Shown: piece after piece, positions 6,944 to 56,587 of the stretch | Numbering within the stretch: position 1 is the first letter of the stretch | Layout of the letters: every line of letters starts with the position of its first letter | Source of the DNA: Blastocatellia bacterium | GTDB lineage: Bacteria > Acidobacteriota > Blastocatellia > HR10 > J050 | Assembly (NCBI GenBank): GCA_026985075.1 | Contig: JALSQX010000005.1 | Coordinates: forward strand, 21,417-85,416 | Length of the DNA stretch: 64,000 nucleotides | Direction of reading: 5' to 3' | The notes under the pieces: generated by a model | Told to the model about the DNA's origin: nothing | What the model saw: the letters and a program-made list of their open reading frames with translations, nothing else | Database searches by the model: none | Made by a program: the position numbers and the translations under genes

Positions 6944-8401
6944 TTATCCTTTGATGTTCCCGATAGGGACGAAGCGAACAACCCGTTTACTGATTCCCGC
7001 CAGCTCGGTCGCTTCAATCACGTCATCGATATTCTTGTAGGCCGGACCAGCTTCTTCGGCGAGTCCGGAGTAGGAGACGCTCCGTACGTAAATGCCGCGC
7101 GCCTCCATCTCCTTCTGGAGCTTCTTGCCCTGGAATTGCTTCCGCGCCTTCCGGCGACTCATGGTCCGACCGCTCCCATGGGCCGTGGTATAGAACGTTT
7201 GATCGCCGCTGGGAATGCCAGCGAGGAGATAAGACCCCGTCTCCATACTGCCGCCAATGATGACCGGTTGGCCGGTTTCTCGATAAATGTCGGGAAGTCC
7301 TTCCATGCCCGGACCAAAGGCGCGCGTCGCTCCTTTCCGATGGACGAGGACATCGCGCACCTCGCCGTCAACGACGTGTTTCTCCAGTTTGGCCGTATTG
7401 TGGGCGACATCGTATACCTGATGTAAACCGAGATCGGCCGGATCCTTATGAAAGACGTCAGAGAACACCTCGCGGATGCGATGAAGGATGACTTGCCGGT
7501 TGGCGAACGACATATTGATGCCGCATTTCATGGCCGCAAAATAATCCTGACCCTCGGGCGAGTGGAAGGGCGCACAGGCGAGTTCTCGATCCAGAATCTT
7601 GATCCCGTATTTGGTCTCCATCACTTTGAGAAAGATCTGCAGGTAGTCGGTGGCGACCTGGTGGCCGAAACCACGGCTGCCACAGTGGAACATGATCACC
7701 ACCTGATTGGGGAGCGTGATGCCGAACGCTTCGGCCAGCCGCCGGTCGAACACGTTCTCCGGCTTGGCCACTTGAATTTCCAGGTAGTGATTTCCCGAAC
7801 CCAAGGTACCAATCTGCTTGTAACCGCGTTCCACAGCTTTTTGGCTGATCTTAGAGGCGTCAGCGCCGGCGATACAGCCTCCTTCTTCCGTACGTTCGAG
7901 ATCTTCGGGCCATCCGTACCCGTTCTTGATGCACCAGCGAGCCCCTTGCTCCACCACTTGGCGGAACTCATCGTGGGAAATTCTCACAAACCCGGTGCTT
8001 CCTACGCCGGCCGGGACGCGCTGGAAGAGTTTGTCGACCAGCTCTCGCAGATGTGGTTTCACCTCTTCATACGTCAGATTGGTGAGCACGAGCCGCATGC
8101 CGCAATTGATGTCAAAGCCGATACCGCCCGGGGAGATGACGCCCGTCCGCGCATCCATGGCCGCCACGCCGCCGATAGGGAATCCATACCCCCAGTGACC
8201 ATCAGGCATACAGTAAGCGTACTTGAGAATACCCGGCAACGTAGCGACATTGGTCACTTGGTCGAAGACGCCTTCGTCCATTTCCCGGAGGAGCTTTTCC
8301 GTGGCGTAGATGCGTGCCGGAACGCGCATCCCGGGCTTATGTGTGGGGGGGATCTCCCAAACGGTATCCGAAATCTTCCTGATATCTTCAGGTATCGCCA
8401 T
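6944..8401 (-). CDS. rtcB: RNA-splicing ligase RtcB.
   Basis: GHWGYGFPIGG, HCGSRGFGHQ and AHGSGR motifs. The start at MAIPEDIRK has a GAGGAGGTG SD. The ORF track extends to 8476. Confidence 0.9.
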   Translation of the reverse strand: MAIPEDIRKISDTVWEIPPTHKPGMRVPARIYATEKLLREMDEGVFDQVTNVATLPGILKYAYCMPDGHWGYGFPIGGVAAMDARTGVISPGGIGFDINCGMRLVLTNLTYEEVKPHLRELVDKLFQRVPAGVGSTGFVRISHDEFRQVVEQGARWCIKNGYGWPEDLERTEEGGCIAGADASKISQKAVERGYKQIGTLGSGNHYLEIQVAKPENVFDRRLAEAFGITLPNQVVIMFHCGSRGFGHQVATDYLQIFLKVMETKYGIKILDRELACAPFHSPEGQDYFAAMKCGINMSFANRQVILHRIREVFSDVFHKDPADLGLHQVYDVAHNTAKLEKHVVDGEVRDVLVHRKGATRAFGPGMEGLPDIYRETGQPVIIGGSMETGSYLLAGIPSGDQTFYTTAHGSGRTMSRRKARKQFQGKKLQKEMEARGIYVRSVSYSGLAEEAGPAYKNIDDVIEATELAGISKRVVRFVPIGNIKG

Positions 8402-8538
8402 GGCTCGGTCACCTCCTCTCTCCAGCCGGGCATGGGCCTCCCCACGTCCGTCGGCTGGAGGGCATTCCTTGGTCAAACTGACGCGTGATTAGAATAAAAT
8501 ATAATCGCCAGTTGCCGTTCCGTCCAGCAGAAGTGGTG

Positions 8539-12586: not shown

Positions 12587-15163
12587 TCACAGCGCTTGAG
12601 CGACTCGTTCCACCGTGAAGACCTCGATGATGTCGCCCGGCTTAATGTCGTTATAATCCTCCAATCGAATACCACACTCGAATCCTTGTTTCACTTCCGT
12701 AGCATCCTCCTTGAATCGCTTGAGCGATTGAATGGTGCCCTCGTAAATGACGACGTTGTCCCGCAGCAGGCGCGCCCGGGCATTTCGTCGCACTACTCCC
12801 TCGGTGACCATGCAGCCAGCGACGTTGCCCACCTTGGGGATATGGAAGATTTGCCGGATCTCCGCCTGTCCAAGACGGACTTCTCGCTCTGTCGGTTCGA
12901 GCAAACCTTCCATGGCTTTTCGAATTTCTTCCTCCACTTTATAGATCACCGAATGGAAGCGAATGTCCACGTGTTCTTGACGGGCCAACTCCGCCGCTCG
13001 AGGTTCAGGACGAACGTTGAAACCGATAACGATGGCCGTGCGATCCATTTGATTGGCGGCGCTGGCCAGGAGGACGTCTGACTCGGTGATAGCACCTACA
13101 CCACTGCGGATGATCGTCACTTTCACTTTTGGACTGGAGAGCTTCTCCAGCGTTTGTCGAAGCGCCTCCAGGGACCCTTGGACATCGGCCTTGAGGATCA
13201 GTTGGAGTTCTTTCAGTTGTCCCGCTTGCAGGCGCTCGTAGAGTTGCTCAAGCGACGTGGCCGCGGTGACTCGGGCTCGCGCCTGGCGCTCGGCCGTCTG
13301 GCGGAGCGAGCTGATGCGCTGAGCCGTGGTCAGGTCGTCGACGACGATGAGCCGATCTCCGGCTTCGGGCACGGCTTCCAGTCCCGTCACTTCAACGGGC
13401 GTCGCGGGTGGAGCTTCAGCGAGTCGCCTCCCTCGGTGATCGAACATGGCCCGCACGCGACCAAACGTCGTGCCCACCAGAAACGCGTCGCCCACACGAA
13501 GGGTGCCCTGTCCGACGAGAATGGTGGCCACCGGACCACGCCCTCGGTCGAGCTTGCTCTCCAGGACCACGCCCGCCGCTTTTCGGTTGGGATTGGCTTT
13601 GAGGTCCAGCAAATCGGCAGTGAGCAGGATCATCTCCAGGAGCTCATCGAGATTGATGCGCTGCTTGGCCGAAACTTCCACCATGACCGTATCGCCTCCC
13701 CAGCCGTCCCACACGAGGCCGTGATCGGCCAGCTCTTTCTTGACGCGCTCGGGATTGGCTTCCGGTTTGTCGATCTTATTGATGGCGACGATGATGGGCA
13801 CGTTCGCCGCTCGCGCGTGCTCGATAGCCTCGATCGTCTGTGGCATGACGCCGTCGTCGGCGGCCACCACGAGCACGACGATGTCGGTCACTTGAGCGCC
13901 GCGAGCGCGCATCATCGTGAAAGCCTCATGGCCGGGGGTATCCAGAAACACGATCTGGCGCTTCTGTCCCGGAGCATCGGGATCATCGACCTCCACGGTG
14001 TAGGCGCCGATGTGCTGGGTGATGCCTCCCACCTCCGATTCGGCCACATGGGTTTCCCGAATGGCATCCAGGAGGCTCGTCTTCCCATGATCCACGTGCC
14101 CCATGACCGTGACCACCGGCGCGCGCGGCACGAGGACCTCTTCTTCTCCCGCGGCGAGCAGCTGCTCGATGACCGCCTCTTCGGCCAACTCTTCGAAGGA
14201 GGCGAAGTGAATATCATAGCCCAGTTCGCGGCCAATCTCTTTAGCGATGTCAGGTTCCAAGGGCTGATTAATGGTGGCCATAATTCCTCGTTTGAGGAGT
14301 CGCTGCATCACGTCGCGGGGGCGGACGTCTAACTTCTCGGAGAATTCCTTCACCGTGATGCCCTCCATGAGCTTGACCGTTCGGAGTTCAGCGGTGGTTG
14401 GCTTGGCGACGGCCGCCGCGGCCGGGCGCTCTTTGACGGGTACGCGTTTTTTCACTGGTGGGCGCGGTGGGCGACGACGACGGCGACGGTCATCGCGTGG
14501 GGGCACGTACACGCGATCTGAGATATCCATGGGCTTGGGGGGCGTCTGGGGCCGCGCGGGGGCTGAGGGGCGCAGAACGGTGACTTTCATCCCCGGCGGA
14601 GATGGGGGCGTTTGGCGGGCCGGCTGTGGGGGGGACGGTTCCGTCACTTCTGCTTTCGCCGCCGCCGTGGCCGGAGGCGCAGGGGACGGCTTGGTGGCTG
14701 GAGGGGCCGCTGGAGGCCGAACTAATTTCAGCGGTGTGACTTTCACCGCAGGCTGCGGTTCGGTCGACGGCTCTTCACCCTTTGGCGGCTTTTTCTTCAA
14801 TCGAACCGCTTTCATCTTCGGTGCCGGAGGCTCGGGGGGCGTCTTCTTCTTTTCGGCGCGAACGGGGGCCTCCATGGCCGCCGGCGCGGCGGGCTTTTCG
14901 ACAACCGTCGGCTCAGGGGATGTTGGCTCGGTGGAAACGGTCTCCGCCGGTTTCTCCTTGACTTTCTTCACCAGACGGACTTTCGGTTTCTTGGGTTCGA
15001 CTTTCTTAACGTAGTATTTGGACCGAATTTTCTCGGCCTCTTCTTCCGTGATCGAGTTAGAGGCCACGCGCACATCGAGGCCGAGACGGCGGGCGTCTTC
15101 AATCACCCGCTTGGGCTCGAGTTTGAGCTGTTTGGCGAGTTCGTAAATTCGTATTTTCCCCAT
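12587..15163 (-). CDS. infB: Translation initiation factor IF-2.
   Basis: [20 protein letters not shown] and NKIDK G-domain motifs. Pro/Ala/Lys-rich N-terminus. Confidence 0.95.
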
Positions 15164-33613: not shown

Positions 33614-34336
33614 TCAGTCGAAGAAAACGAGTTGATGCTCGAATGCCTCTCTCAAGTGGTCTACTTCAATATCCCCTCGCTTCTGCTCCAGTATTTGGAA
33701 TACGGCAGAAACGAAAGTGGCGAATTGAATCACCGCCTGACGGATGTCCAGATACCAGTACATCCCTTCGCGTAAGGCCTGAAGCTTCCATCCTGCCGGG
33801 AGCTTCTTTGCCGCCTGGTCCAAAATAGACGCCGTCGCGTTCAACCCCAAGGCGATCTCCAGTCGGGCGCGGATGATGCCATCAAAAGCGCCGGTTAACA
33901 TCCGGAGTAGCTCCTGTGAGGTTTTCATCGCCAGTTGTACGTCAACCCCATCTGCCTCATGGGCCTGTTGGGTGAGTAAGGCCTTCACGACATTCACCAG
34001 CTTCGTGAGCGTCAGCTCTTTGGCAATGAACATGTCAGCTCCCGCCTGAAATCCGCGCAAGATGTCAATGACGCGGGTCCGCCCCGTGAATAATATAACC
34101 GGAAGCTGATGGGTTGCCGCGCTCCGTTTCAGTTGCTCGCAGATCTGAATGCCATCAATATCAGGGAGGAGCAAGTCAAGAATGATCAAATCCGGCCGCT
34201 GCTCGGACGCCAGTGCGAGACCATCGGCTCCCTGTGTGGTGGTGAGAATATCATAACCGAGGCGCCGGAAGACCCGGGAGAGAGTCTGGCATTGGACCGG
34301 CGAGTTATCGATGATGAGTAGTTTCTGAGAGTTCAT
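33614..34336 (-). CDS. Response regulator: REC domain plus a C-terminal domain of unknown function.
   Basis: LLIIDNS...DLIILDLLLPDIDG receiver motifs (D, D, K). Confidence 0.8.
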   Translation of the reverse strand: MNSQKLLIIDNSPVQCQTLSRVFRRLGYDILTTTQGADGLALASEQRPDLIILDLLLPDIDGIQICEQLKRSAATHQLPVILFTGRTRVIDILRGFQAGADMFIAKELTLTKLVNVVKALLTQQAHEADGVDVQLAMKTSQELLRMLTGAFDGIIRARLEIALGLNATASILDQAAKKLPAGWKLQALREGMYWYLDIRQAVIQFATFVSAVFQILEQKRGDIEVDHLREAFEHQLVFFD

Positions 34337-34728
34337 ACGGAACGTCCTGGTCTGCGCATGGCGTCTAATTCAAAAAACACGATAACATCCGCCACGCCGG
34401 GCATCCAGCCACATCTCCGCGACTTCCGGCGAAGCTCATGTGATTGATAGCAAGCACCGTGCCGCGAGGATGTGCCCGAGGTTCTTCAGACAAGCCCCAT
34501 CAAAGCAATGGGTTATATGTCTTGGGGATGAATGGTGAGGGATGGCGACGAGGAGATATTTCACCGGCGAAACGCCTCCTTTTCACCAGTGATACATCCG
34601 GTGACCCCACGCAAAGTCCAGGCGTGACGGTGACATCGCATGGCCCTTCCCAGCAACGTCACCGCTCGTCCCTCGTTGGCCGATTCAGCGTTCGGCAACA
34701 ACGGCCGTTCGACCCGCCATCGTTCAGT

Positions 34729-35094
34729 TCAATAGAGCCGTGCCGGTCCCCCTGAGATGATGAAGAGGAGGAGCTGAAAGGCAGTCCCCGGTACCGTGAG
34801 GGGAACGGGGGTGAAGAGTGGCCAGGAGTTCTGGGTAGAGGAGAACGTCCCGCCGAATCGGAAAACGGGTCCAAAACGCGAAGGGAACCCCTTGCTCCTC
34901 GGACCGCTCACCATGCCAATACCCGGTGATGTGGGTTTGCCCGCGTGACTCTCCCGGCCCGTGGTGGAGATCGTGCCCGGTTTGTCCGGCCGGCCAGCAT
35001 GGCTCTCGCGAGCGGGGACGAGCCTGGTTGGAACGAGTAGAGTTGATGCAAGGAGCACGAAGATGAGTAGCCGTTTCATGATGTTCCTCCTCAC
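34729..35094 (-). CDS. Small secreted Pro/Gly-rich protein.
   Basis: Signal peptide MKRLLIFVLLASTLLVP. Internal duplicated RESHAG(R/K)P unit. Confidence 0.4.
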   Translation of the reverse strand: MRRNIMKRLLIFVLLASTLLVPTRLVPARESHAGRPDKPGTISTTGRESHAGKPTSPGIGMVSGPRSKGFPSRFGPVFRFGGTFSSTQNSWPLFTPVPLTVPGTAFQLLLFIISGGPARLY

Positions 35095-35174: not shown

Positions 35175-36626
35175 TTACACATTATACTTCCTTCTCAACA
35201 TCGTGACATAGGCTTTCGTGACGCCCAATAGTTTGGCCGCTTTCACCTGACTCCCTCCCGCGCGATTGAGCGCTTCGGCGAGGAGGAATTTCCCCAACGC
35301 TTCGTGAGCTTCGCGCCACGTGGGGAGGAAACTACTCCTGATCATGAATACGCCTCCAGAGACCTTTATCTTCTCCGCATCGAGCAGCTTCTCGACCCGC
35401 TCCATTTGTGCCTTGAGGTGCGCATCGCTGTAATGCTCCATCAGCCCTTGAGCGCGTTCAAAGTATTCATAAGCGCGCGTCCCGTCACCCTTACGGGCAT
35501 GGATCTCGGCCAGATAGATACAGCTTTCGCACTCGAGCATCTTGCTGTTGAGTTGAATGGCGAGGCGGAGAGCTTGATCAAGCTTCTCCTGAGCTTCATT
35601 GACTGCCCCTTGTGCGGCTAAAACTCGTCCCAGGGTGATGAGGGCAAACGCCTTCTCGGGGGGACTCTTGGCTAGATCGGCCAGTTCGATAGCTGACTGG
35701 AGCACTCGCCGCGCTTCATCCAGATGCCCTCGCTCCAGGTGGAGGATTCCCATCAATTCCAGCGTGACCGATTCGCCGGCAATATCGTTGGCCCGGCGGC
35801 GGAGTTCTAAACTCTCGTGCAACAGTTCCTCGGCTTTGTCCAGATGACCGAGCTGAATCTCCACATAAGCAAGATTGTTGGTCGCATGAGCCAGATCATC
35901 GAACGAAGCGCTCTCGGAGAAGTAGGTTATGGCTTCTTGGTAACACTGGGCGGCCCGCTCGTATTCCCCTTTCGCTCTGAGGAGCATCCCGTAGCTGTTC
36001 AGCACGAAGCCATAATATCGCCCATTCTCTGTTCGCTTGAGCAATCGCATCGCCTCTTCATACAGTGACTCTGCTCGCTCCAATTCTCCTAACTGGTGGT
36101 GTACGACTCCGAGGTTGAACCGGATAGTGCCAGTCAAAAAGTCCGTCTCCTCGACCTGCGCCTGATGTTGAGCGATGTCGAGAGCTTCTTCAAGGTGCCC
36201 TCTCGCCCGTTCATAATGGCCTTGTCGACGGTAAAGGCGACCAAGAAGACAAAGCGCGCGGGCTTGACCAAAGGCATCTCGCCGGATTCGGTAGATGCCG
36301 AGTACGTTGTGGAGATGCTTTTCGGCCGCCTCATACTCTCCTCGCCAGTAAAGCCATTCGGCTCTGGCCATCTCGAACTCGGCGACATCCCTCAGATTCG
36401 ATTCATCCTCTATGGCTGCCTCGAATGGTTCCAGGACCTCGGCCGCTTCATCCAACCGTCCCTGATAGATCAAAAGTTGTGCGCGCACCGCGGCCGTTCT
36501 CAAATCCTCGGTTTCGGGGAGGGCTTCTATGACTTCAGCCGCTCTCTTGAAGTCGCCCCGGTGAATTAATCCCTCTGCCCGGACGACCTTTTCCCTCCAT
36601 TGCGTTCGCGCCATATGTTGCTCCAT
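35175..36626 (-). CDS. TPR-repeat protein with a C-terminal Fis-type HTH.
   Basis: Multiple TPR units. C-terminal ...SQVKAAKLLGVTKAYVTMLRRKYNV matches the HTH_8 pattern. Confidence 0.75.
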   Translation of the reverse strand: MEQHMARTQWREKVVRAEGLIHRGDFKRAAEVIEALPETEDLRTAAVRAQLLIYQGRLDEAAEVLEPFEAAIEDESNLRDVAEFEMARAEWLYWRGEYEAAEKHLHNVLGIYRIRRDAFGQARALCLLGRLYRRQGHYERARGHLEEALDIAQHQAQVEETDFLTGTIRFNLGVVHHQLGELERAESLYEEAMRLLKRTENGRYYGFVLNSYGMLLRAKGEYERAAQCYQEAITYFSESASFDDLAHATNNLAYVEIQLGHLDKAEELLHESLELRRRANDIAGESVTLELMGILHLERGHLDEARRVLQSAIELADLAKSPPEKAFALITLGRVLAAQGAVNEAQEKLDQALRLAIQLNSKMLECESCIYLAEIHARKGDGTRAYEYFERAQGLMEHYSDAHLKAQMERVEKLLDAEKIKVSGGVFMIRSSFLPTWREAHEALGKFLLAEALNRAGGSQVKAAKLLGVTKAYVTMLRRKYNV

Positions 36627-47927: not shown

Positions 47928-47943
47928 TTTTCATCGTTGAAAC
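47928..47943. promoter_or_regulatory. Palindromic upstream motif TTTTCA-N4-TGAAAC, about 120 bp upstream of sigma54 promoter A.
   Basis: Inverted repeat. The same TTTCA-N4-TGAAA motif recurs at 50639-50652. Confidence 0.4.
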
Positions 47944-48054
47944 GGACAGGGCCAAAGTTGGTATGGGAGAAAATCTCCTCAGTTCACGCAAGATGCGCAC
48001 GTTCAGCGAGTTCTGGCTTCGCAGAGATGACCATTCCTCCGCTTCATTGAGGTT

Positions 48055-48070
48055 TGGCACAGGTCTTGCG
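48055..48070 (+). promoter_or_regulatory. Sigma54 promoter TGGCAC-N5-TTGC (TTTGGCACAGgtCTTGCGC).
   Basis: Perfect -24/-12 consensus, about 65 nt before the ATG of the beta-helix gene. Confidence 0.65.
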
Positions 48071-48135
48071 CTCAACTTTGTTCCCTGAGGTAACTCAGGC
48101 AAGAGGGTCAAAACGAACGACATGGGGGTAAGAAA

Positions 48136-50577
48136 ATGAGGACGAATAATACTCGCGCTCAACACACATCGTTTCTGCGAGCTCTCCTGATCGTCGGATT
48201 CATAGGATGGATGATTATGATGGCCTGGGGCGCTGTGGACCGGGTCATCGCCCAGGGCCCCAGAACCTATTATGTGGATGCGACGGGCGGTGACGATGCC
48301 CATGATGGGCTCTCGCCAGGGACGGCGTGGCGCACGATGGACAAAGTCAATCATACGCACTTTCGACCGGGCGATCGCATCCTCTTCAAGCGTGGCGAAA
48401 TATGGTACGACACGCTGGAAGTCAATAGTAGCGGGCAGCCCGGCAATCCCATCACGTTCGGTGCTTATGGTGATGGACCACGTCCGGTCATCGATGGCCA
48501 GTTCCGCTTGAGTCGGGCCGTTCAGATTTATGATCAGAGCTTCGTAGTCATCGAATCTCTCGAACTTCGTAATTGCACCGGTAGCGGGCTCTGGACCGGT
48601 GGCCAGATTTCCGATCTGACGTTTCGCGATCTGAATGTCCATCACAACGATTCCAATGGAATCTTTCTGGATCACGCCAACAATGTGATCATCGAAAATT
48701 GCGAGATTCACGATCAATCAGGATTGACCGATCCGTCACTCTTGGGGGCTGGGATCGATGTCTTGGGCGGGACGGGCATCTTGGAGATTCGCTACTGTCA
48801 GATCTACAATAATGCCACCCATGGGATTTATCACGAGACGCCGGGGGCGCACATTCATCACAATACCATCTATGGCAATGGGGTGGGCAATGCGAGCTTC
48901 GCCCAGCATGGCATCTACTCCAATGCGAATAACACCATCGTGGAATACAACGAAATTTTCGACAATTACACCACCGGTATCTCCATGCGCGAGAGCGGGG
49001 GCATTTGTCAATACAACACGTGTTACAATAATGGATTCGCCCAGATCCACTACTCGCAGCCCGATGAACAGGTGGACATTTCCGATACGGAGTTTCGATT
49101 CAACGTGTGTTGGACGACGCGAGATACGAGCTATGGATTTTCCGGCACCAATATGAACGGAGTTCGTTTGTTCAACAATACGTTCTATTGCGATACGCCC
49201 GGATGGACAGCGGCCGTGGAGATCCCTGAGAATTGCCGCAGCGTGACATTGAAGAACAACATCCTGTACGTCACGCATCAATGGGCTGTCAGCCTGTTCG
49301 TGGTGAGCGGTGCTCAGGGCGTTGTGGAGGATTACAACTTATTGCAACGGGAGGATCGCCGTTCCGATGACGCCCACGTCAATTGGCAGGGAGGACTCTA
49401 TACCTTGGCCGAGTATCAACATCTCTCTGGTCAGGGCGCTCATTCCATGGAGGGAGACCCTCGCTTCGTAGATCCACAGTTACGCGATTTCTCGCTTCGG
49501 CCGGACAGCCCGTGCATTGATGCGGGCATCGATGTGGGATTGCCGTATCAGGGGAATGCCCCCGATATTGGGGGCATTGAGTCGGATCTGGCTTCCCCGC
49601 CTGATCCGTCAGAACCCGATCTGGTGATCCAGGCTTTGACGGTGTCACCGTCGGCGGCGTTTCCAGGAGATTCGGTGACCGTCTCGTTCACCGTGGCGAA
49701 TATCGGTGAAGGAACGGCGCCCTCGTCGTGGGTCCGTGTCGTCTTCTCGCCGGACGCCGATGTCACGGCCGATGATGTCTCATTGACCAATTTGGTCATC
49801 GAGGAGTTGCCCAGCCAGGGGTCGCAGAGCTTCACGACGTCGGTCAATATCCCCACCCAAGCGGCTCCGGGCATCGCGTTCATCGGCGTGATCGCCGACG
49901 TGACCGGGAGCGTTCAGGAAGCTGATGAGGGGAATAATACGGCGAGTGCACCGCTCACCATCAACAACGATTCCTCCATCACCGTTGTGACGCCCAATGG
50001 AGGGGAGGTATGGGGGATGGGAGAGGTGGTGACCATCACCTGGGAGTCGGTGGGATTGGGTGATGGGTTGAAGATTGAGTTATCGCGGGATGGGGGGCAG
50101 ACGTATGAGACGTTGTATGCCAACACGGACAACGATGGAGTGCAGGAGTGGTGGGTGAACGGGGAGCCGACCACGGCGGCGGTGATTCGGATATCCAGCA
50201 ATGAGGATCCGTCGGTGGTCGATACCAGCGATGGGGTGTTCAGCATCGTGGAGACCTCGCCGCCACCTCCACCACCCCCCTCGGAGGCCTCCATCACCGT
50301 TGTGACGCCCAATGGAGGGGAGACGTGGCTGATTGGTCACCTGCAGACGATCCGATGGACGTCGACCGGCATCACGGGAAATGTGCGCATCAAGCTCTTG
50401 TATCGTGATGGGCGTCGCTCTCGTATTCTCTTCAGAAGCGTGCCTAATACCGGTTCCGTGCAGTGGATGGTGAAAGGTCCGGCCTCATCACAGTGTCAGA
50501 TCGAAATCATCAGCTTGGAAGATCGGACCGTTCGAGATCGGAGTGATGGATCGTTCACCATTGCCAGATCGCCGTGA
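48136..50577 (+). CDS. Secreted right-handed beta-helix (pectate-lyase-like) protein with two tandem C-terminal repeats of about 95 aa.
   Basis: N-terminal TM/signal. Many NxxxH/G beta-helix rungs. Two tandem C-terminal repeats, ITVVTPNGGE(V/T)W...I(T/R)W(E/T)S. Confidence 0.85.
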   Translation: MRTNNTRAQHTSFLRALLIVGFIGWMIMMAWGAVDRVIAQGPRTYYVDATGGDDAHDGLSPGTAWRTMDKVNHTHFRPGDRILFKRGEIWYDTLEVNSSGQPGNPITFGAYGDGPRPVIDGQFRLSRAVQIYDQSFVVIESLELRNCTGSGLWTGGQISDLTFRDLNVHHNDSNGIFLDHANNVIIENCEIHDQSGLTDPSLLGAGIDVLGGTGILEIRYCQIYNNATHGIYHETPGAHIHHNTIYGNGVGNASFAQHGIYSNANNTIVEYNEIFDNYTTGISMRESGGICQYNTCYNNGFAQIHYSQPDEQVDISDTEFRFNVCWTTRDTSYGFSGTNMNGVRLFNNTFYCDTPGWTAAVEIPENCRSVTLKNNILYVTHQWAVSLFVVSGAQGVVEDYNLLQREDRRSDDAHVNWQGGLYTLAEYQHLSGQGAHSMEGDPRFVDPQLRDFSLRPDSPCIDAGIDVGLPYQGNAPDIGGIESDLASPPDPSEPDLVIQALTVSPSAAFPGDSVTVSFTVANIGEGTAPSSWVRVVFSPDADVTADDVSLTNLVIEELPSQGSQSFTTSVNIPTQAAPGIAFIGVIADVTGSVQEADEGNNTASAPLTINNDSSITVVTPNGGEVWGMGEVVTITWESVGLGDGLKIELSRDGGQTYETLYANTDNDGVQEWWVNGEPTTAAVIRISSNEDPSVVDTSDGVFSIVETSPPPPPPPSEASITVVTPNGGETWLIGHLQTIRWTSTGITGNVRIKLLYRDGRRSRILFRSVPNTGSVQWMVKGPASSQCQIEIISLEDRTVRDRSDGSFTIARSP

Positions 50578-50638
50578 AACGGCATGCTGTAGCGAGATGC
50601 GCTCAAGGGTCGGACCCGATGGTCAGACGCCCAAACGG

Positions 50639-50652
50639 TTTCATTTTTGAAA
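50639..50652. promoter_or_regulatory. Palindromic upstream motif TTTCA-N4-TGAAA, about 138 bp upstream of sigma54 promoter B.
   Basis: Same motif as at 47928. A further TTGAAAC half-site lies at about 50668. Confidence 0.4.
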
Positions 50653-50781
50653 GAGGTTTTACACGATTGAAACTTTGGAGGTGAATCGAAGCTCGGCTGA
50701 GTCGCAGTGGTGAAGCAACAACTCCTACGGGCACAGTGCCTTCGGCGCTAGTGGTCTGGACGTCCTGGAGACTCCACTGTT

Positions 50782-50797
50782 TGGCACAGCGCTTGCG
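50782..50797 (+). promoter_or_regulatory. Sigma54 promoter TGGCAC-N5-TTGC (TTTGGCACAGcgCTTGCGC).
   Basis: Perfect consensus, near-identical to the one at 48055. About 210 nt before the ATG at 51007. Confidence 0.6.
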
Positions 50798-51006
50798 CAG
50801 GGAAGATGGGGGAGTTGTGGAGTGATGAGGGAACGAGCGCGTCTGACAAAAAGAGCGCTGGCCAGCAGGATGCCATGGTCCGGCCGATGCGAGACAGGAT
50901 GGAGCATCCGGTCCGAGCCGATGTCAGTTGACATCTGTTCGCTTGCTCGGTCTCATGGGGTTAAGGTAACATTGCATCCGTCTCCGCCAGAGAGAAGGAG
51001 TCGAGC

Positions 51007-53151
51007 ATGATGGTGACGAAGTCGGAACCTCGCATACTCATCGTGGACGATGAACCATTGGTCCGTCGCACGCTGGCGGAGATCATCCGCAATGGTGGAT
51101 TCTCGGCGACGGCGGTGAGTCGAGGCAAAGAGGCGATTGGCGAGATACAGCGTCAGTTCTATCACCTCGTCCTATTAGATTTGAACCTCCCGGATATGAG
51201 TGGGCTCGATGTGGTGAAGCACATCAAGCACCACTCTCCCAAAACGGAAATCGTCATCATCACCGGATATGCCTCACTGAAGACGGCGATTGAGGCGCTC
51301 GAGCGCGGCGTCATGGCGTACGTGGAGAAGCCCGTTCGCCCCAATCAATTAATCGCCACCATCAACAGCGTTCTGGAGAAGCAGCGGTTGAAGTTCGAAA
51401 ACGAACGCATGCTTCGCCAACTCTCGGCCTTGCTCTATTTCGCTCAGGACATCACTTCCGAACTGGAACTCGACGAATTGCTCCGGCGCATTGTCATCCG
51501 GGCGACGGAATTGACCAATGCCGAGAAGGGGTTCATCGCCCTTCGAGAGGGTGATGTCCTCCAACTTCGCCAGTACTGGGATGGTCGATGCTGGGTTGAT
51601 CTGGAAATGGCGTGGAAGCGCGGCGAAGGGATTCCCGGGCAGGTGTGGGTGACGGAGCATCCATATATGTATACGAAGTCCGATCCAGATCCGCTGGTCA
51701 CCCCATCTGTCCTCTCCGCATTTCAGCTCGAGGCCTGTCTCTGCTCGCCCATTACGGATACGATGGGGCGCTTCATCGGCGTGTTGCAAGTCATCAATAA
51801 GGTGGGTGATGAGCCATTCACGCTCGATGACTTGTCGATGCTCCAAGCGCTCAGTCGTCAGGCGGCCATCGCCATCGAGAATGCCCGGCTCTACGAGCGG
51901 CAAAAAGAAGAGGCCGAGATCTCCACTTCGCTCCTTCGCGTCGCCGAGAGCATCAGTCAATTCACCAACCTGGATGAGCTCCTCGGCATGGCCTCGAAAA
52001 TCGTCCCCGGCCTTCTGGGGTGTGATCAGTTCGGTCTCTTTTTGCTCGATCGGGCGAAGAACATATTTTATGGGGCCAAGGCCCGCGGTTCATCGGCCGA
52101 GCAAGAAGCGGCGTTCTGTGCCTTGAAATTCAGGCGAGGGAAGGCCGGGATTTTGGACGAAGTCACCGAGCGACGGGAAGCCATGGTGTTGGAGGATGTC
52201 GCTCGAGAGCAGGCGATCGATCCCTCCTATGTGCGCCAGTTGAACCTGCGTTCGTGCCTGCTGGTCCCTCTCATCGCCAAGGGAGACGTCGTCGGCGTGA
52301 TGGGCGTAGGGTATTCGATGGGTCCTCATCGATTCACCGCTCGCGACATCAAGATTGCCACCGGAGTCGCTCATCAATTGGCTGTGGCCATTGAGAATGC
52401 CAATCTATTCGCCGAAGTCTCGTCGCATAAAGCGGCGCTTCAGCGTCTCTCCATGCGGTTGGCCAATGTCCTAGAGGAAGAGCGCGCGCGGATATCGCGG
52501 GAACTGCATGACGGGGTGGGGCAAGTACTCTCCGGCATGCTCATTGGCATGGACGTCTTGGAGGAGAAGGTCCCCCCGTCGCTTGGCGAAATCAAAGAAG
52601 GATTGAAGCAGATGAAGATGTTAACGGAGAAGACGCTCGACGAACTGCGGCGACTCTCTCACGATTTGCGGCCGTCGCTCCTTGATGATCTGGGACTCCT
52701 CGACGCGCTCCAGTGGTTGGGAGACTATCTGGCCGAACGATGCGGATGGACGGTGAACCTGATCGTCGACGAGGACTTTCCTCGATTGCCGACGGAGATC
52801 GAGACGGCCCTGTTCCGCATCAGCCAGGAGGCGCTGAATAATATCCGCGCCCACGCCAATGCTTCCACGGTGACGCTTCGCCTCCATCGCCAGGACGATA
52901 TCATTCAACTGGAAATCAGCGATGACGGTCGCGGGTTCGATCCCGCCGCGCTGGATGGCGCGCATCGGGGGTTGGGGTTGCTCTCGATGCGAGAGCGCGC
53001 CACCGCATTGGGAGGAGAGGCGTTCATCGAATCAGAGGTCGGGAAGGGGACGACAATCAAGATCATCGTCCCATGGCCGAATTCTCCTCGGCCTCCCGCA
53101 CCCGTCTCCGTCGAGGAGACTCCCTATGTGGCCGAAAAGCAGGGATCGTGA
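51007..53151 (+). CDS. Hybrid sensor histidine kinase: REC, GAF, GAF, HisKA_3, HATPase_c.
   Basis: N-terminal receiver (LVLLDLNLPDMSG). H-box ISRELHDGVGQ. GLGLLSMRERA ATPase motifs. AAGGAG SD. Confidence 0.9.
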   Translation: MMVTKSEPRILIVDDEPLVRRTLAEIIRNGGFSATAVSRGKEAIGEIQRQFYHLVLLDLNLPDMSGLDVVKHIKHHSPKTEIVIITGYASLKTAIEALERGVMAYVEKPVRPNQLIATINSVLEKQRLKFENERMLRQLSALLYFAQDITSELELDELLRRIVIRATELTNAEKGFIALREGDVLQLRQYWDGRCWVDLEMAWKRGEGIPGQVWVTEHPYMYTKSDPDPLVTPSVLSAFQLEACLCSPITDTMGRFIGVLQVINKVGDEPFTLDDLSMLQALSRQAAIAIENARLYERQKEEAEISTSLLRVAESISQFTNLDELLGMASKIVPGLLGCDQFGLFLLDRAKNIFYGAKARGSSAEQEAAFCALKFRRGKAGILDEVTERREAMVLEDVAREQAIDPSYVRQLNLRSCLLVPLIAKGDVVGVMGVGYSMGPHRFTARDIKIATGVAHQLAVAIENANLFAEVSSHKAALQRLSMRLANVLEEERARISRELHDGVGQVLSGMLIGMDVLEEKVPPSLGEIKEGLKQMKMLTEKTLDELRRLSHDLRPSLLDDLGLLDALQWLGDYLAERCGWTVNLIVDEDFPRLPTEIETALFRISQEALNNIRAHANASTVTLRLHRQDDIIQLEISDDGRGFDPAALDGAHRGLGLLSMRERATALGGEAFIESEVGKGTTIKIIVPWPNSPRPPAPVSVEETPYVAEKQGS

Positions 53152-53222
53152 GGATGCAGTCAAGAAGCCTGACCGGGTGGCGACGGTTGGGTGGAGGATC
53201 AGAACCGTTCGAGGAGTGATCC

Positions 53223-53903
53223 ATGAGTGCGACCATTGGACGAGATACGGTGAGAATCTTGCTGGCTGACGATCACATCATTGTCTGTGATGCCTTGGCC
53301 AGTTTGCTGGAGGCGGATCCTCGATTCAAGGTCGTCGGCCAGGCTCACAGTGGTCTGGAAGCGCTGGAGAAGATCGAACAACTGCGGCCGGACATCATCG
53401 TCGTTGATATTGGCATGCCCGGGCTGAATGGCATCGAGGTGATCAAGCGGGTGAAAAAGAAAGACGCGCATATTAAGGCCATCGTCCTGTCCATGCACAA
53501 GGATGAAGCCTACATATACTGGGCACTCCGCGCCGGGGCTTCCGGATATGTTCTCAAGCAAAGTGCGGCCCGCGAACTGGTCGATGCGATCTCCCAGGTT
53601 CGACTGGGCAACACCTACTTGAGCCCTTCCATTTCTAACACGGTGATCAAAGGCTATCTGAGGCGACCTCAGGCGGCCGATGCAGCCCCTGATCCCTTGA
53701 CGTTGCTGACCGACCGCGAACGAGAGATTCTCCAACTGGTCGCCGAAGGACTGACCAGTAAGGAGATCGCCCAGAAACTCAATCTGAGCACCCGCACCAT
53801 TGATGCTCACCGGGCCAATATCATGAACAAGTTGAATATCCACACTACTCCCGGGTTGGTGAAATTCGCCATTCGGCACCGATTGACCACGCTGGACGAT
53901 TGA
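53223..53903 (+). CDS. NarL/FixJ-family response regulator (REC plus LuxR HTH).
   Basis: ILLADDH...IIVVDIGMPGLNG. LTDREREILQLVAEGLTSKEIA. Confidence 0.9.
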   Translation: MSATIGRDTVRILLADDHIIVCDALASLLEADPRFKVVGQAHSGLEALEKIEQLRPDIIVVDIGMPGLNGIEVIKRVKKKDAHIKAIVLSMHKDEAYIYWALRAGASGYVLKQSAARELVDAISQVRLGNTYLSPSISNTVIKGYLRRPQAADAAPDPLTLLTDREREILQLVAEGLTSKEIAQKLNLSTRTIDAHRANIMNKLNIHTTPGLVKFAIRHRLTTLDD

Positions 53904-54252: not shown

Positions 54253-55683
54253 TCAGGCGAGTTTCGCCGCACGGTGAGCGCTCGCCCTTCGAGGCCGGAA
54301 TTGATCGGGGTTGATATGATACCGCTTCATTTTCTGATAGAGATGCCCTTCGAACATTCCCGTGGCTCGAGCCGTCTGCGCCACGTTGCCACGGTGCAGG
54401 GACAAGTGGTGAAGAATGTATTGGCGCTCGAAATCGCCAAGAAATCGCTCCTTGGCAACCTTGAAGGGCGCGTTGAAATCTGGTGTCGAGGGGAAAGCCT
54501 CTCGCATGAGTTGCCGGGATGGGTGGAGTTCGTCAGGCAGGTGCTCGGGGCACACTTCGCCGTCATCGCACATGATGACGGCTCGCTCGATCGCGTTCTG
54601 CAGTTCTCTGACATTGCCCGGCCAGTCGTGTCGTTCCAGAAGCTGAAGAGCTTCTGGGGAGAGCCGAGGGGCTGGCCGGTTCAGTCGCTGTGAACATTTC
54701 TGGAGGAAAAAGTGGACCAGAGCAGGGATATCATCTTTTCGCTCCCGGAGGGGCGGCAGATGGAGGTGGACGACATTCAGTCGGTAATACAAATCGGCGC
54801 GAAATCGCCCCGCGCGCACGGCATCGGAGAGATTTTGATTGGTGGCGGCCAGCACGCGGACATCGGTGTGGTAGACGCGCGTGTCTCCCACGCGGTTGTA
54901 TTCTCCTTGTTGGAGCACGCGCAACAGCTTCAGTTGGAAGGTGGGACTGACGTCTCCAATCTCGTCCAGGAAGATCGTCCCTCCATTGGCGATCTCGAAG
55001 AAGCCGGGCTTGGCCTGATCAGCCCCCGTGAATGCGCCACGGGCGTGGCCAAACAACTCTGACTCCAGCAACGTCTCGGACAGAGCGGCACAGTTGACGA
55101 CGACAAACGGGCGACTGGCGCGCCGACTCAGTCGATGAATCTCTTGTGCCAGCAGCTCCTTTCCCGTGCCCGTCTCTCCTGTGATGAGGATAGTCGTATC
55201 GGTTCGAGCCGCTTTGGCGGCCATGGTGAGAATCGACTGGAAAGCGGGGTTCTGCGTGATGATCGTCGGCATGGAGGGACTCTGGCGCCAGGAGAGCGGA
55301 GGGGATGAGGGAGGCAAGCGCTCGCTCAGCGCGCGGTCCAGACAGCGTATGAGCTCATGCTCCGCAAACGGTTTGATGATCAGTTGAGAGGCCCCATGTT
55401 CGATGACTTCGCTGAGCACTTTCACCGGCGTCTCCTCGGCGGCAATCACCAAGGCGCTCATCCGCAGTAGCTCGCGCACAATCCGGTTCGCGCAGTCGTG
55501 ATTCGAGATACCCCGAGGCCCAATCTCGGTGATCGTGGTAATGATGGGATGACGTTGAATCTGTTCCATCGCGCTCGTCGCCGTCTCGGCGATGAGAACG
55601 CGATACCCGCGGTGGGTCAAGGTCCTGAATAATAGGTTTTGGATCTCTCGATCTTGAGTGACTAGCAGAATCGTCCCACTCAT
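54253..55683 (-). CDS. Sigma54-dependent response regulator (NtrC family, possibly PrsR-like).
   Basis: REC domain. AAA+ domain with GETGTGKE, GAFTGA and ESELFGH. C-terminal Fis HTH. Confidence 0.9.
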   Translation of the reverse strand: MSGTILLVTQDREIQNLLFRTLTHRGYRVLIAETATSAMEQIQRHPIITTITEIGPRGISNHDCANRIVRELLRMSALVIAAEETPVKVLSEVIEHGASQLIIKPFAEHELIRCLDRALSERLPPSSPPLSWRQSPSMPTIITQNPAFQSILTMAAKAARTDTTILITGETGTGKELLAQEIHRLSRRASRPFVVVNCAALSETLLESELFGHARGAFTGADQAKPGFFEIANGGTIFLDEIGDVSPTFQLKLLRVLQQGEYNRVGDTRVYHTDVRVLAATNQNLSDAVRAGRFRADLYYRLNVVHLHLPPLRERKDDIPALVHFFLQKCSQRLNRPAPRLSPEALQLLERHDWPGNVRELQNAIERAVIMCDDGEVCPEHLPDELHPSRQLMREAFPSTPDFNAPFKVAKERFLGDFERQYILHHLSLHRGNVAQTARATGMFEGHLYQKMKRYHINPDQFRPRRASAHRAAKLA

Positions 55684-55984
55684 CGACCCTCCCTCTCTTG
55701 ATGAAGAAAGGCAAGTTGCTTCGGGATGACCCCGGAAGCCCCTTGCCTGAGTTTACCGCCCAGCTCGTGGAGGCGAGCTGGGCCAAGCCCTGTCTTTCTT
55801 GTTCTTATCTCTGCTCAACCCTGCGTTCATGAGTGTCTCTAGTTTCTCTCCCGAATGCGCCACAGATGATATTGTCTCACAGATGGCGATAAACACAATT
55901 GGTGAGATCACCTAACCGAGTGAGTATTTTTACTGAATACGGAATGAGGAAATTACCTACAGACGCCCTCTCCTCTCATCTCGT

Positions 55985-56007
55985 AGAGGAACGTCCTCTC
56001 TTTTTTT
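55985..56007 (+). terminator. Orphan intrinsic terminator: AGAGGA-acg-TCCTCT, then C and T7.
   Basis: Hairpin plus U-tract on the plus strand. No plus-strand CDS lies upstream within 2 kb. Confidence 0.45.
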
Positions 56008-56191
56008 GCAGTGATGCTAACTGACGATTTGCGGGTGAATTAAGCTCGCGCCGGCCACATCATCGAGGCTGGCGATCCTCTAAAAAAGTGGAGGATTCCG
56101 AATCCCGCTGACTCCCGCGAATGACCCCTTATTCCAGGCAACCTTATCGAAACACGAGGCTTACGTGTGCCGCCCAGATACCTCATGAGAG

Positions 56192-56207
56192 CCGGCATGC
56201 CGCTTGC
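56192..56207 (+). promoter_or_regulatory. Sigma54-like promoter cGGCAT-N5-TTGCA.
   Basis: GG-N10-GC spacing with an extended match, about 135 nt upstream of the zinc-ribbon ORF. Confidence 0.35.
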
Positions 56208-56338
56208 AATGGCCTTCCCGTGCGGAAACGCAACCGCGATTGCGGAGATTCAAACGAAGGTCCCACCGAGCGTCTCTGCATGCTCGGTGGGGCTCAACTC
56301 GGCAAGGACTCAGACACGCTTCTGTGGAGAGCGAGATT

Positions 56339-56587
56339 ATGAAACAGATATTTGAGTCACTCACTGCATCAGGATGGATGAGTGCGACAGAGACATACTA
56401 CACGTGCCCACGCTGTGATTATTTCTCGAACGCTAGACTCCAGGAGAACTATTGCTCGAACTGTGGGGCCCGGTTGCTGACCGAGTGCTCCCGCTGCCGA
56501 GGAGCGATCTCGAATCCTTATGCCAAGTTCTGCTCAAGCTGTGGGGGCCGACTCAAAGAGGCCGCCGCGATCACGGAACAGCGTTAG
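56339..56587 (+). CDS. 82-aa double zinc-ribbon protein.
   Basis: CPRCDY...CSNCGA and CSRCRG...CSSCGG. GGAGAG SD. Confidence 0.55.
   Translation: MKQIFESLTASGWMSATETYYTCPRCDYFSNARLQENYCSNCGARLLTECSRCRGAISNPYAKFCSSCGGRLKEAAAITEQR

Follow-up and report, generated by a model that had tools for sequence, protein, structure and literature searches.

Three copies of a tandem-dyad enhancer module point to a small, conserved sigma-54 regulon in a Blastocatellia bacterium

Introduction

Acidobacteria are abundant in soil and rarely cultured. In a 64-kb stretch of DNA from a Blastocatellia bacterium of this phylum (contig JALSQX010000005.1 of assembly GCA_026985075.1; hereafter the window, meaning the whole stretch analyzed), a first-pass annotation had pointed out two near-identical sigma-54 promoters, each preceded by the inverted repeat TTTCA-N4-TGAAA. 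They had been read as a small regulon, with an implied link to a nearby gene for an enhancer-binding protein (EBP) and a possible tie to an adjacent exopolysaccharide (EPS) locus of the PEP-CTERM type. The locus raises two questions: whether the repeats and promoters form a regulatory unit, and which EBP would act on it. Our analysis suggests that the window carries three copies of one sigma-54 enhancer module, that these belong to a conserved regulon, and that the likely activator is an unlinked EBP with a PrpR-like recognition helix. On balance, we hold this combined reading to be the probable one.

Results

Tandem dyads precede three sigma-54-type elements

Both promoter strings are present as had been reported, with TTTGGCACAGgtCTTGCGC beginning at 48053 and TTTGGCACAGcgCTTGCGC at 50780, and the distance given for TTTCA-N4-TGAAA also holds (124 and 141 bp upstream of the two strings). 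The consensus TGGCAC-N5-TTGC matches the window twice (48055 and 50782, both on the plus strand and both intergenic) where 0.07 matches are expected, and the exact dyad likewise occurs twice (47929 and 50639) against an expectation of 0.05. When one mismatch was allowed, we found six dyads instead of the expected 1.35, and all six fell into three tandem pairs (47908+47929; 50639+50659; 34559+34581) with members 20 to 22 bp apart, each pair lying upstream of a -24/-12 element (Table 1). This spacing corresponds to two helical turns, so both dyads of a pair would lie on one face of the DNA. The second dyad at each promoter had been overlooked in the first-pass annotation, as had the entire third module, which runs from 34594 to 34450 on the minus strand. 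The co-location is not random: a composite search for a -24/-12 element (at most one mismatch) with two dyads (at most one mismatch each) 18 to 33 bp apart and 80 to 150 nt upstream returned three sites in the window and none in 300 first-order Markov simulations.

The two perfect elements (48055 and 50782) lie 67 and 211 nt upstream of start codons, and the tandem dyads, as candidate upstream activating sequences (UASs), lie 94 to 133 nt upstream of the -24/-12 elements. No sigma-70-like promoter was predicted in either of the intergenic regions that hold modules 1 and 2, and no Rfam family matched anywhere in the window. These sequence features support the assignment of both sites as bona fide sigma-54-type promoters that define a small regulon.

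The genes around them had been called correctly, namely a Beta_helix and CARDB protein, a REC-GAF-GAF-HisKA_3-HATPase kinase, a REC-GerE regulator, and a 476-aa Sigma54_activat protein. The product of target gene 1 has an N-terminal signal or anchor (a hydrophobic segment) followed by right-handed beta-helix, CARDB, and Kre9_KNH-like domains; it ends in ...DGSFTIARSP and has no PEP-CTERM tail. Module 2 precedes the kinase operon with a leader of ~200 nt (50797-51006), a length kept in most of the orthologues compared (L002, L089, L090, and L092); the leader of the L087 kinase gene is just ~35 nt as annotated. The dyads of module 3, upstream of the gene for a CheY-like protein, are 22 bp apart, with the proximal one 94 nt before the -24 element.

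Sequence and geometry of the module are conserved in related lineages

The nearest named relatives of the window are metagenome-assembled genomes (MAGs) labeled "Acidobacteria bacterium". We obtained orthologous loci from homologous proteins and the contigs encoding them, and compared 13 promoters from eight lineages (loci L002, L009, L062, L087, L089, L090, L092, and L096, together with the window). The module is kept upstream of orthologues with 51 to 91% protein identity in seven other metagenomic lineages. For the kinase, 11 orthologue clusters share 61 to 70% identity, and the next matches fall to ~34%; a kinase-based search of metagenome contigs returned four distant matches (27 to 33% identity) and no orthologues. 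In six of six further lineages (L002, L009, L087, L089, L090, and L092), the kinase gene is preceded by a pair of dyads at 20-bp spacing and by a -24/-12 element. The beta-helix gene retains the module in L002, L062, and L089, while the L096 orthologue of the CheY-like gene (51% identical) is preceded by dyads 18 bp apart and by CGGTATGCTGGTTGC at a 110-nt gap.

In 12 of the 13 promoters, 108 to 112 nt separate the proximal dyad from the T of TGGCAC, the exception being module 3 of the window (94 nt). Spacing this rigid suggests that selection acts on a looping geometry. In an alignment of 12 sequences (A1), three islands are conserved, namely the dyads, a CA-N5-TT core, and the -24/-12 element, and the remaining spacer has diverged. 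The dyads follow the consensus GTTTCAnTCnTGAAAT...TTTCACTnTTGAAAC, in which the extended dyad GTTTCA-N4-TGAAAC displays the half-site of PrpR-type enhancers. The CA-N5-TT of the middle core is invariant and lies ~49 nt upstream of the GG. Its spacing is that of the consensus for integration host factor (IHF), WATCAANNNNTTR, with 6 to 8 of the nine specified positions matched, and an IHF-like core stands at -50 to -54 from TGGCAC in 8 of the 13 promoters. We infer that this core is an IHF-like bend site. With the GG set as -24, the dyad centers fall at ~-143 and ~-164 and the bend-like core at ~-72; the predicted layout is the classical UAS-bend-promoter arrangement of enhancer-dependent sigma-54 promoters. 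Several palindromic UAS copies 100 to 250 bp upstream are typical of such promoters (PMC6615313).

These observations bear on an alternative, namely that the modules are chance resemblances or remnants of a duplicated segment without a regulatory role. Nothing speaks for it beyond the usual reservation that a match to a consensus does not prove function; the observed counts far exceed expectation, both for the single motifs and for the composite, and the module is conserved across 13 promoters whose flanks have diverged. Furthermore, the two modules around the beta-helix gene share their functional islands alone, which argues against a recent duplication. We regard the chance explanation as highly improbable and effectively refuted. 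Conservation in orthologous loci considerably strengthens the proposal of a small sigma-54 regulon with a shared upstream site, to which a third member can be added.

Two further matches in related loci were set aside. In L087, a dyad at 16448 and a promoter at 16608 precede a gene for an ECF sigma factor and might be taken for a fourth module; with a gap of 146 nt and no canonical second dyad, they were not counted, and no module was found in the equivalent spacer of L090. A sigma-54 match at 11679 of L004 lies inside the coding region of a lipoprotein signal peptide and was judged to be due to chance. Where the kinase/LuxR operon lies away from the EBP gene (L087 12296-16144, L090 4152-7850, and L092 4171-7868), it is followed by genes for an ECF-type sigma factor, a CarboxypepD_reg protein, and TadE/TadG-like pilus components, neighbors that hint at what the kinase-LuxR two-component system may control.

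A PrpR-like recognition helix accompanies the dyads across phyla

In a scan of GTDB species-representative genomes, 75 loci matched TTTCA-N4-TGAAA-N(105-135)-TTTGGCAY-N5-TTGC. In 27 of them, a second dyad (at most one mismatch) lies 18 to 21 bp away, compared with ~0.24% expected. Eight of the tandem-dyad loci belong to Poribacteria; the others are from Pseudomonas, from numerous Bacillota, and from MAG J050 of the Acidobacteria. In the other phyla, the genes downstream are catabolic (acyl-CoA ligase, M24 peptidase, oxoprolinase/hydantoinase, FAH-family hydrolase, ETF, and aldehyde dehydrogenase), and an EBP gene is usually adjacent. Nearly all EBPs beside tandem dyads end in ...LG(I/M)S(R/K)xTLWR(K/R)..., as exemplified by ISRTTLWRK. 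The helix pattern occurs beside TTTCA-N4-TGAAA sites in at least nine independent lineages, and 1 of 120 generic EBP homologues has it.

The Poribacteria loci (L013, L014, L031, L034, L037, L041, L061, and L073) have one promoter in common, with its two exact TTTCA-N4-TGAAA dyads spaced 18 bp apart. Its neighbors in L014 are a downstream gene for an M24 (Xaa-Pro peptidase/creatinase-like) protein and a divergent gene for a PAS-domain EBP ending in LGISRTTLWRKLKAV; the EBPs of L013, L031, L037, L041, L061, and L073 have the same C-terminal helix. A literature search for TTTCA-N4-TGAAA as an EBP site found no paper naming the motif, and a Clostridiales sigma-54 supplement gives only N3-spaced TTTCA/TGTCA sites, for AorR.

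By mechanism and half-site, the closest match to the acidobacterial modules appears to be the PrpR-type enhancer. The Pseudomonas EBP that directly adjoins tandem TTTCA-N4-TGAAA dyads belongs to the PrpR family (514.8 against the TIGR02329 cutoff of 499.2). Escherichia coli K-12 PrpR ends in LGISRTTFWRRLKS, with the recognition helix ISRTTFWRRL, and the prpR-prpB spacer (L098, NC_000913 348443-348682) contains GTTTCAT-N10-ATGAAAC and, after it, three GAAAC repeats. As in the acidobacterial modules, the GTTTCA/TGAAAC half-site stands upstream of TGGCAC-N5-TTGC in prpBCDE, and the TGAAA half-site is 110 nt from TGGCAC. According to Palacios and Escalante-Semerena, prpBCDE expression reportedly needs PrpR, sigma-54, and IHF, and PrpR is said to footprint two dyad-symmetric sites. 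The two systems nevertheless differ. The E. coli dyad has a 12-nt center (TTTCA-N12-TGAAA) and is accompanied by GAAAC repeats, whereas the acidobacterial dyads are tandem and N4-spaced; the prp targets serve the 2-methylcitrate cycle and propionate catabolism, whereas those in the window are signaling and surface proteins. With no PrpR-like EBP in the window and no prpBCDE among the target genes, the modules do not belong to the PrpR system itself. The tandem enhancers of Poribacteria, Pseudomonas, and Bacillota have the same dyad at similar spacings, yet they serve catabolic targets beside an adjacent EBP, in contrast to the regulators, secreted protein, and nonadjacent EBP of the acidobacterial case. 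The helix-site pairing makes an EBP that is encoded outside the window and has a PrpR-like helix, (I/M)S(R/K)xTLWR(K/R), the most likely activator.

The dyads might instead be operators of a regulator other than an EBP, with an EBP acting from elsewhere or from solution. A 14-bp palindrome would be plausible for a GerE-type dimer, and the LuxR gene is itself a target of one promoter, which could mean NarL/LuxR autoregulation. A second candidate is a 483-aa TPR protein encoded just upstream of module 3 (35175-36626, minus strand), which ends in a helix-turn-helix (HTH) of the Fis type (HTH_8, 22.5 bits) and has no AAA+ domain. We consider such a role improbable. Equal tandem dyads at equal distance occur beside EBP genes in Poribacteria, Pseudomonas, and Bacillota with no need of NarL-type or TPR-HTH genes, the strict 108- to 112-nt gap and the central bend-like element fit looping by an enhancer-bound ATPase, and the TPR-HTH gene is not beside the orthologue of the CheY-like gene in L096. 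Between the TPR-HTH gene and the module 3 dyads lies a gene (34729-35094, minus strand) for a predicted secreted 121-aa protein with a hydrophobic C-terminal stretch and no Pfam match.

The neighboring EBP is more probably tied to a divergent EPS operon

The preferred reading, an unlinked activator with a PrpR-like helix, has to be set against the EBP encoded at 54253-55683, which is the only one in the window and as such the natural candidate. Its scores are 235.9 bits against PF00158, 27.4 bits against HTH_8 (cutoff 22), and 32.1 bits against the Pfam REC profile. The gene lies on the strand opposite to the LuxR gene and is convergent with it, an orientation missed in the first-pass annotation, where the product was called a sigma-54-dependent response regulator. 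The call as an EBP was right, but that of a working response regulator was not. We aligned the receiver (alignment A3) with canonical receivers, namely P0011, a homologue with 41% identity, and the three REC domains that the window encodes, and found that in five of five orthologues the acceptor column holds Glu, the DD pair is replaced by TQ, TK, or AQ, and the conserved Thr/Ser is replaced by Ala or Pro. From these residues, the domain is predicted to be a pseudo-receiver at which NtrC-type phosphorylation would fail. Asp-to-Glu at the NtrC acceptor position is a classical activating substitution, a precedent that makes a constitutive or otherwise regulated local EBP plausible, and the pseudo-receiver is possibly phosphomimetic.

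This EBP could bind the dyads and activate all three promoters, as a constitutive or nonphosphorylated activator with its Glu acceptor. Besides being the sole EBP in 64 kb, its gene lies 350 bp past the LuxR gene in both the window and MAG J050 (L009) and 4.5 kb away from it in L002. The EBP and kinase families are similarly small and lineage-restricted, and both occur in MAG GCA_975965185.1. In general, EBP genes usually cluster with their targets (PMC6615313). The linkage is, however, not the conserved one. Only the window, J050, and L002 have the kinase operon near the EBP gene; L004 lacks it within 4 to 10 kb, and in sample 3300037506 the EBP (L006) and the kinase (L087) are on different contigs. 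The conserved partner of the EBP gene is instead a small double-zinc-ribbon (DZR) gene, from which it diverges in all loci that extend upstream of the EBP gene (the window, L002/L003, L004, and L005) and which is followed by Poly_export, Wzz, and AAA-type EPS genes.

The EBP-DZR spacer has a promoter of its own. We compared four spacers (window 55684-56345, L002 9282-10000, L004 9339-10000, and L005 5999-6544) and found a sigma-54-like element in each, the relatives carrying TGGCACGAGGCTTGC (L002), TGGAACACTCATTGC (L004), and TGGCACACCCGTTGC (L005), which are perfect or near-perfect. In place of TTTCA dyads, of which the spacer has none even at two mismatches, there are other conserved palindromes. 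The block CAATTGGTGAGATCACCTAG-N4-CTAGGTATTTTTA...TTACCTAG (55896-55962 of the window) lies ~294 bp from the promoter in four of four loci, and the sigma-54-like element is followed by a conserved leader, GGAG(G/A)TTCAA, and a hairpin. This architecture could be a UAS of the local EBP, or a small transcript. The CCTCT-N8-AGAGG repeats were rejected as a clean "class II UAS", as one pair overlaps a terminator-like hairpin and T-run.

The recognition helix points in the same direction. The local EBP has GMFEGHLYQKM, within a TGMFEGHLYQK(M/I)KRY stretch shared with all its orthologues, and MFEGHLYQKM lacks the S-R-x-T-L-W-R-K pattern seen beside the dyads in other lineages. A paralogue of the EBP that lacks the REC domain (P0008, from the same MAG as P0002) adjoins the sigma-54 promoter of an FG-GAP protein, which has no canonical TTTCA dyads; one REC-less paralogue is encoded in MAG GCA_975965185.1, which also holds an orthologue of the EBP and one of the kinase. 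This suggests that several EBPs represent the family in the lineage and that each apparently goes with the promoter beside it. Thus, the adjacent EBP more probably drives the divergent zinc-ribbon/EPS operon from the separate sigma-54 promoter than the TTTCA-dyad promoters; we regard its action at the dyads as rather unlikely, and the link to it implied by the first-pass annotation is unsupported. The REC-less paralogues in L094 (2632-6759) and L095 (414-5415) are 56 to 59% identical to the EBP over the AAA+ and HTH regions, and each precedes a sigma-54 element and the gene for a very large FG-GAP/beta-helix protein.

Comparison with PrsR- and NtrC-type systems

The suggested PEP-CTERM connection brings to mind the PrsK/PrsR regulon, which is likewise EPS-associated, occurs in environmental bacteria, and consists of single-gene operons for secreted proteins with long upstream regions that carry a conserved activator motif and a -24/-12 element. 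The PrsR box has TTTACA in motif 1, lies ~63 nt from the sigma-54 motif, and is restricted to Proteobacteria (Haft et al. 2006, PMC1569441), in contrast to TTTCA-N4-TGAAA at 108 to 112 nt here. The local EBP scores 319.4 bits against a cutoff of 502.6 for TIGR02915 (PEP_resp_reg) and is not PrsR by this measure, and the neighboring kinase is a cytoplasmic REC-GAF-GAF protein rather than PrsK. No PEP-CTERM-like tail was found in the window and no exosortase matched among the window open reading frames scanned, although the EPS locus runs off the window, so that absence from the genome is not implied. The EPS proteins of the window score below the XrtA-system cutoffs. On the grounds of family cutoff, motif, spacing, and missing tails, we rejected the PEP-CTERM/PrsR explanation; the tie to the adjacent EPS genes is indirect at best.

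NtrC/DctD/NtrC1-type enhancers (glnAp2, dctA, and nifH), with two dimer sites and IHF, share the general architecture and the presumed looping. Their recognition sequence is unlike the acidobacterial one, however, and the neighboring EBP is predicted not to be phosphorylatable at the canonical Asp.

Other features of the window and related loci

The rest of the window encodes housekeeping functions (IF-2, NusA, Der, TatC, and ProC), which marks the DNA as chromosomal rather than as a mobile element. A gene for an RtcB RNA ligase (6944-8476, minus strand) has no adjacent RtcR EBP. In L002, three copies of CGGCTCAGATGCCAGAGG with 69-bp spacing (14800-14955) form a tandem repeat among small open reading frames between Crp-like and LuxR genes.

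Table 1. Modules, target genes, and the neighboring EBP locus, in window coordinates
Feature	Position	Strand	Remarks
Module 1, distal dyad TCTCACTCATGAAA	47908..47921	+	One mismatch; kept in J050 L062 and L002
Module 1, proximal dyad TTTCATCGTTGAAA	47929..47942	+	21 bp from distal dyad; 112 nt before TGGCAC
Module 1, IHF-like core GTTCAGCGAGTTC	48001..48013	+	Putative bend site; conserved island in alignment A1
Module 1, sigma-54 -24/-12 element TGGCACAGGTCTTGC	48055..48069	+	Kept in L062, L002, and L089
Target gene 1, 813-aa beta-helix protein	48136..50577	+	From profile domains and sequence
Module 2, distal dyad TTTCATTTTTGAAA	50639..50652	+	
Module 2, proximal dyad TTACACGATTGAAA	50659..50672	+	20 bp from distal dyad; 109 nt before TGGCAC
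Module 2, IHF-like core GCACAGTGCCTTC	50731..50743	+	Weak match; aligned column block in A1
Module 2, sigma-54 -24/-12 element TGGCACAGCGCTTGC	50782..50796	+	Kept upstream of 6/6 orthologous kinase genes examined
Target operon 2	51007..53903	+	Kinase, then NarL/LuxR-type regulator; ~200-nt leader
REC-GAF-GAF-HisKA_3-HATPase kinase	51007-53151	+	Target operon 2
REC-GerE (NarL/LuxR-type) response regulator	53223-53903	+	Target operon 2
Module 3, tandem dyads TATCACTGGTGAAA (distal) and TTTCGCCGGTGAAA (proximal)	34559..34594	-	Distal 34594-34581; proximal 34572-34559
Module 3, sigma-54-like -24/-12 element CGGCACGGTGCTTGC	34450..34464	-	One mismatch
Target gene 3, 240-aa CheY-like receiver protein	33614..34336	-	Uncharacterized C-terminal half
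EBP	54253..55683	-	Predicted pseudo-receiver; AAA+ with GAFTGA; atypical Fis-type HTH (GMFEGHLYQKMKRY)
EBP-DZR spacer, conserved block CAATTGGTGAGATCACC...	55896-55962	+	Non-TTTCA
EBP-DZR spacer, CCTCT-N8-AGAGG dyads	55972-55989, 56077-56094	+	Latter palindrome, CCTCTAAAAAAGTGGAGG
EBP-DZR spacer, terminator-like hairpin and T-run	55985-56008	+	
Separate sigma-54-like element CGGCATGCCGCTTGC	56193..56207	+	Upstream of DZR gene and EPS export operon

Discussion

In the mechanism that we propose, an AAA+ EBP would oligomerize on the tandem dyads, the DNA between dyads and promoter would be bent, presumably with a role for IHF, and the EBP would touch the closed complex of the sigma-54 holoenzyme and open it using ATP. 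The putative regulon would comprise the REC-GAF-GAF kinase and NarL/LuxR operon, the secreted beta-helix/CARDB protein, and the CheY-like protein. Such a composition suggests the upper tier of a cascade that turns on a second two-component system and a surface or extracellular protein. That the organism uses sigma-54 is indicated by the presence of an EBP with GAFTGA in the window.

Several observations weigh against this reading. No cognate EBP was found: the window and 16 related loci, translated in six frames, yielded no PrpR-like helix. Within the window, module 3 has a 94-nt gap and an imperfect -24 element, and there is neither an rpoN nor an IHF gene. The IHF-like core matches only 6 to 8 of nine specified consensus positions. 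The local EBP and the kinase operon are within 0.4 to 4.5 kb of each other in three lineages (the window, J050, and L002), as expected of a cognate regulator. The correlation between helix and site is statistical, not structural, and eight of the supporting loci are Poribacteria orthologues; moreover, two Bacillota EBPs beside tandem dyads have the helix VSPATLSRR, which indicates that the helix-site code is not absolute.

A wider picture can be drawn more tentatively. The Acidobacteriota clade, which is uncultured, may use a two-tier sigma-54 circuit for the cell surface, in which an unlinked EBP with a PrpR-like helix, on tandem GTTTCA-N4-TGAAAC sites of fixed geometry, would control a GAF-sensing two-component system, the CheY-like protein, and a secreted beta-helix enzyme, while the EBP with the Asp-to-Glu pseudo-receiver, blind to phosphorylation, would separately control the EPS export operon, and the pairing of the helix with TGAAAC would be a code that holds across phyla. 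Taken as a whole, this picture is a speculative one that we would not expect to hold in every part.

From sequence comparison, the modules appear to make up a sigma-54 regulon that is conserved and specific to its lineage; their design is a textbook one and not a new mechanism. The surprises are modest: the rigid 110-nt geometry, the choice of regulators rather than catabolic enzymes as main targets, as in a cascade, a pseudo-receiver EBP whose predicted specificity is at odds with its proximity, and the cross-phylum pairing of the helix with TGAAAC. Sigma-54 regulation in Acidobacteria has hardly been studied, and a 2025 cross-phylum survey of sigma-54 regulons never mentions the phylum (PMC12316311). 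The locus offers a testable regulon that joins a GAF-type sensor kinase and a secreted beta-helix protein, with an EPS operon nearby, and the functions linked in this way are of the cell-exterior kinds proposed for sigma-54 control. It also advises caution, since proximity alone is a poor ground for matching a promoter with its activator. Enhancers with tandem TTTCA-N4-TGAAA dyads occur widely, and the helix pairing may serve to match orphan EBPs to promoters in metagenomes; if true, the code of (I/M)S(R/K)xTLWR(K/R) and TGAAAC would let the targets of an EBP be predicted from sequence alone.

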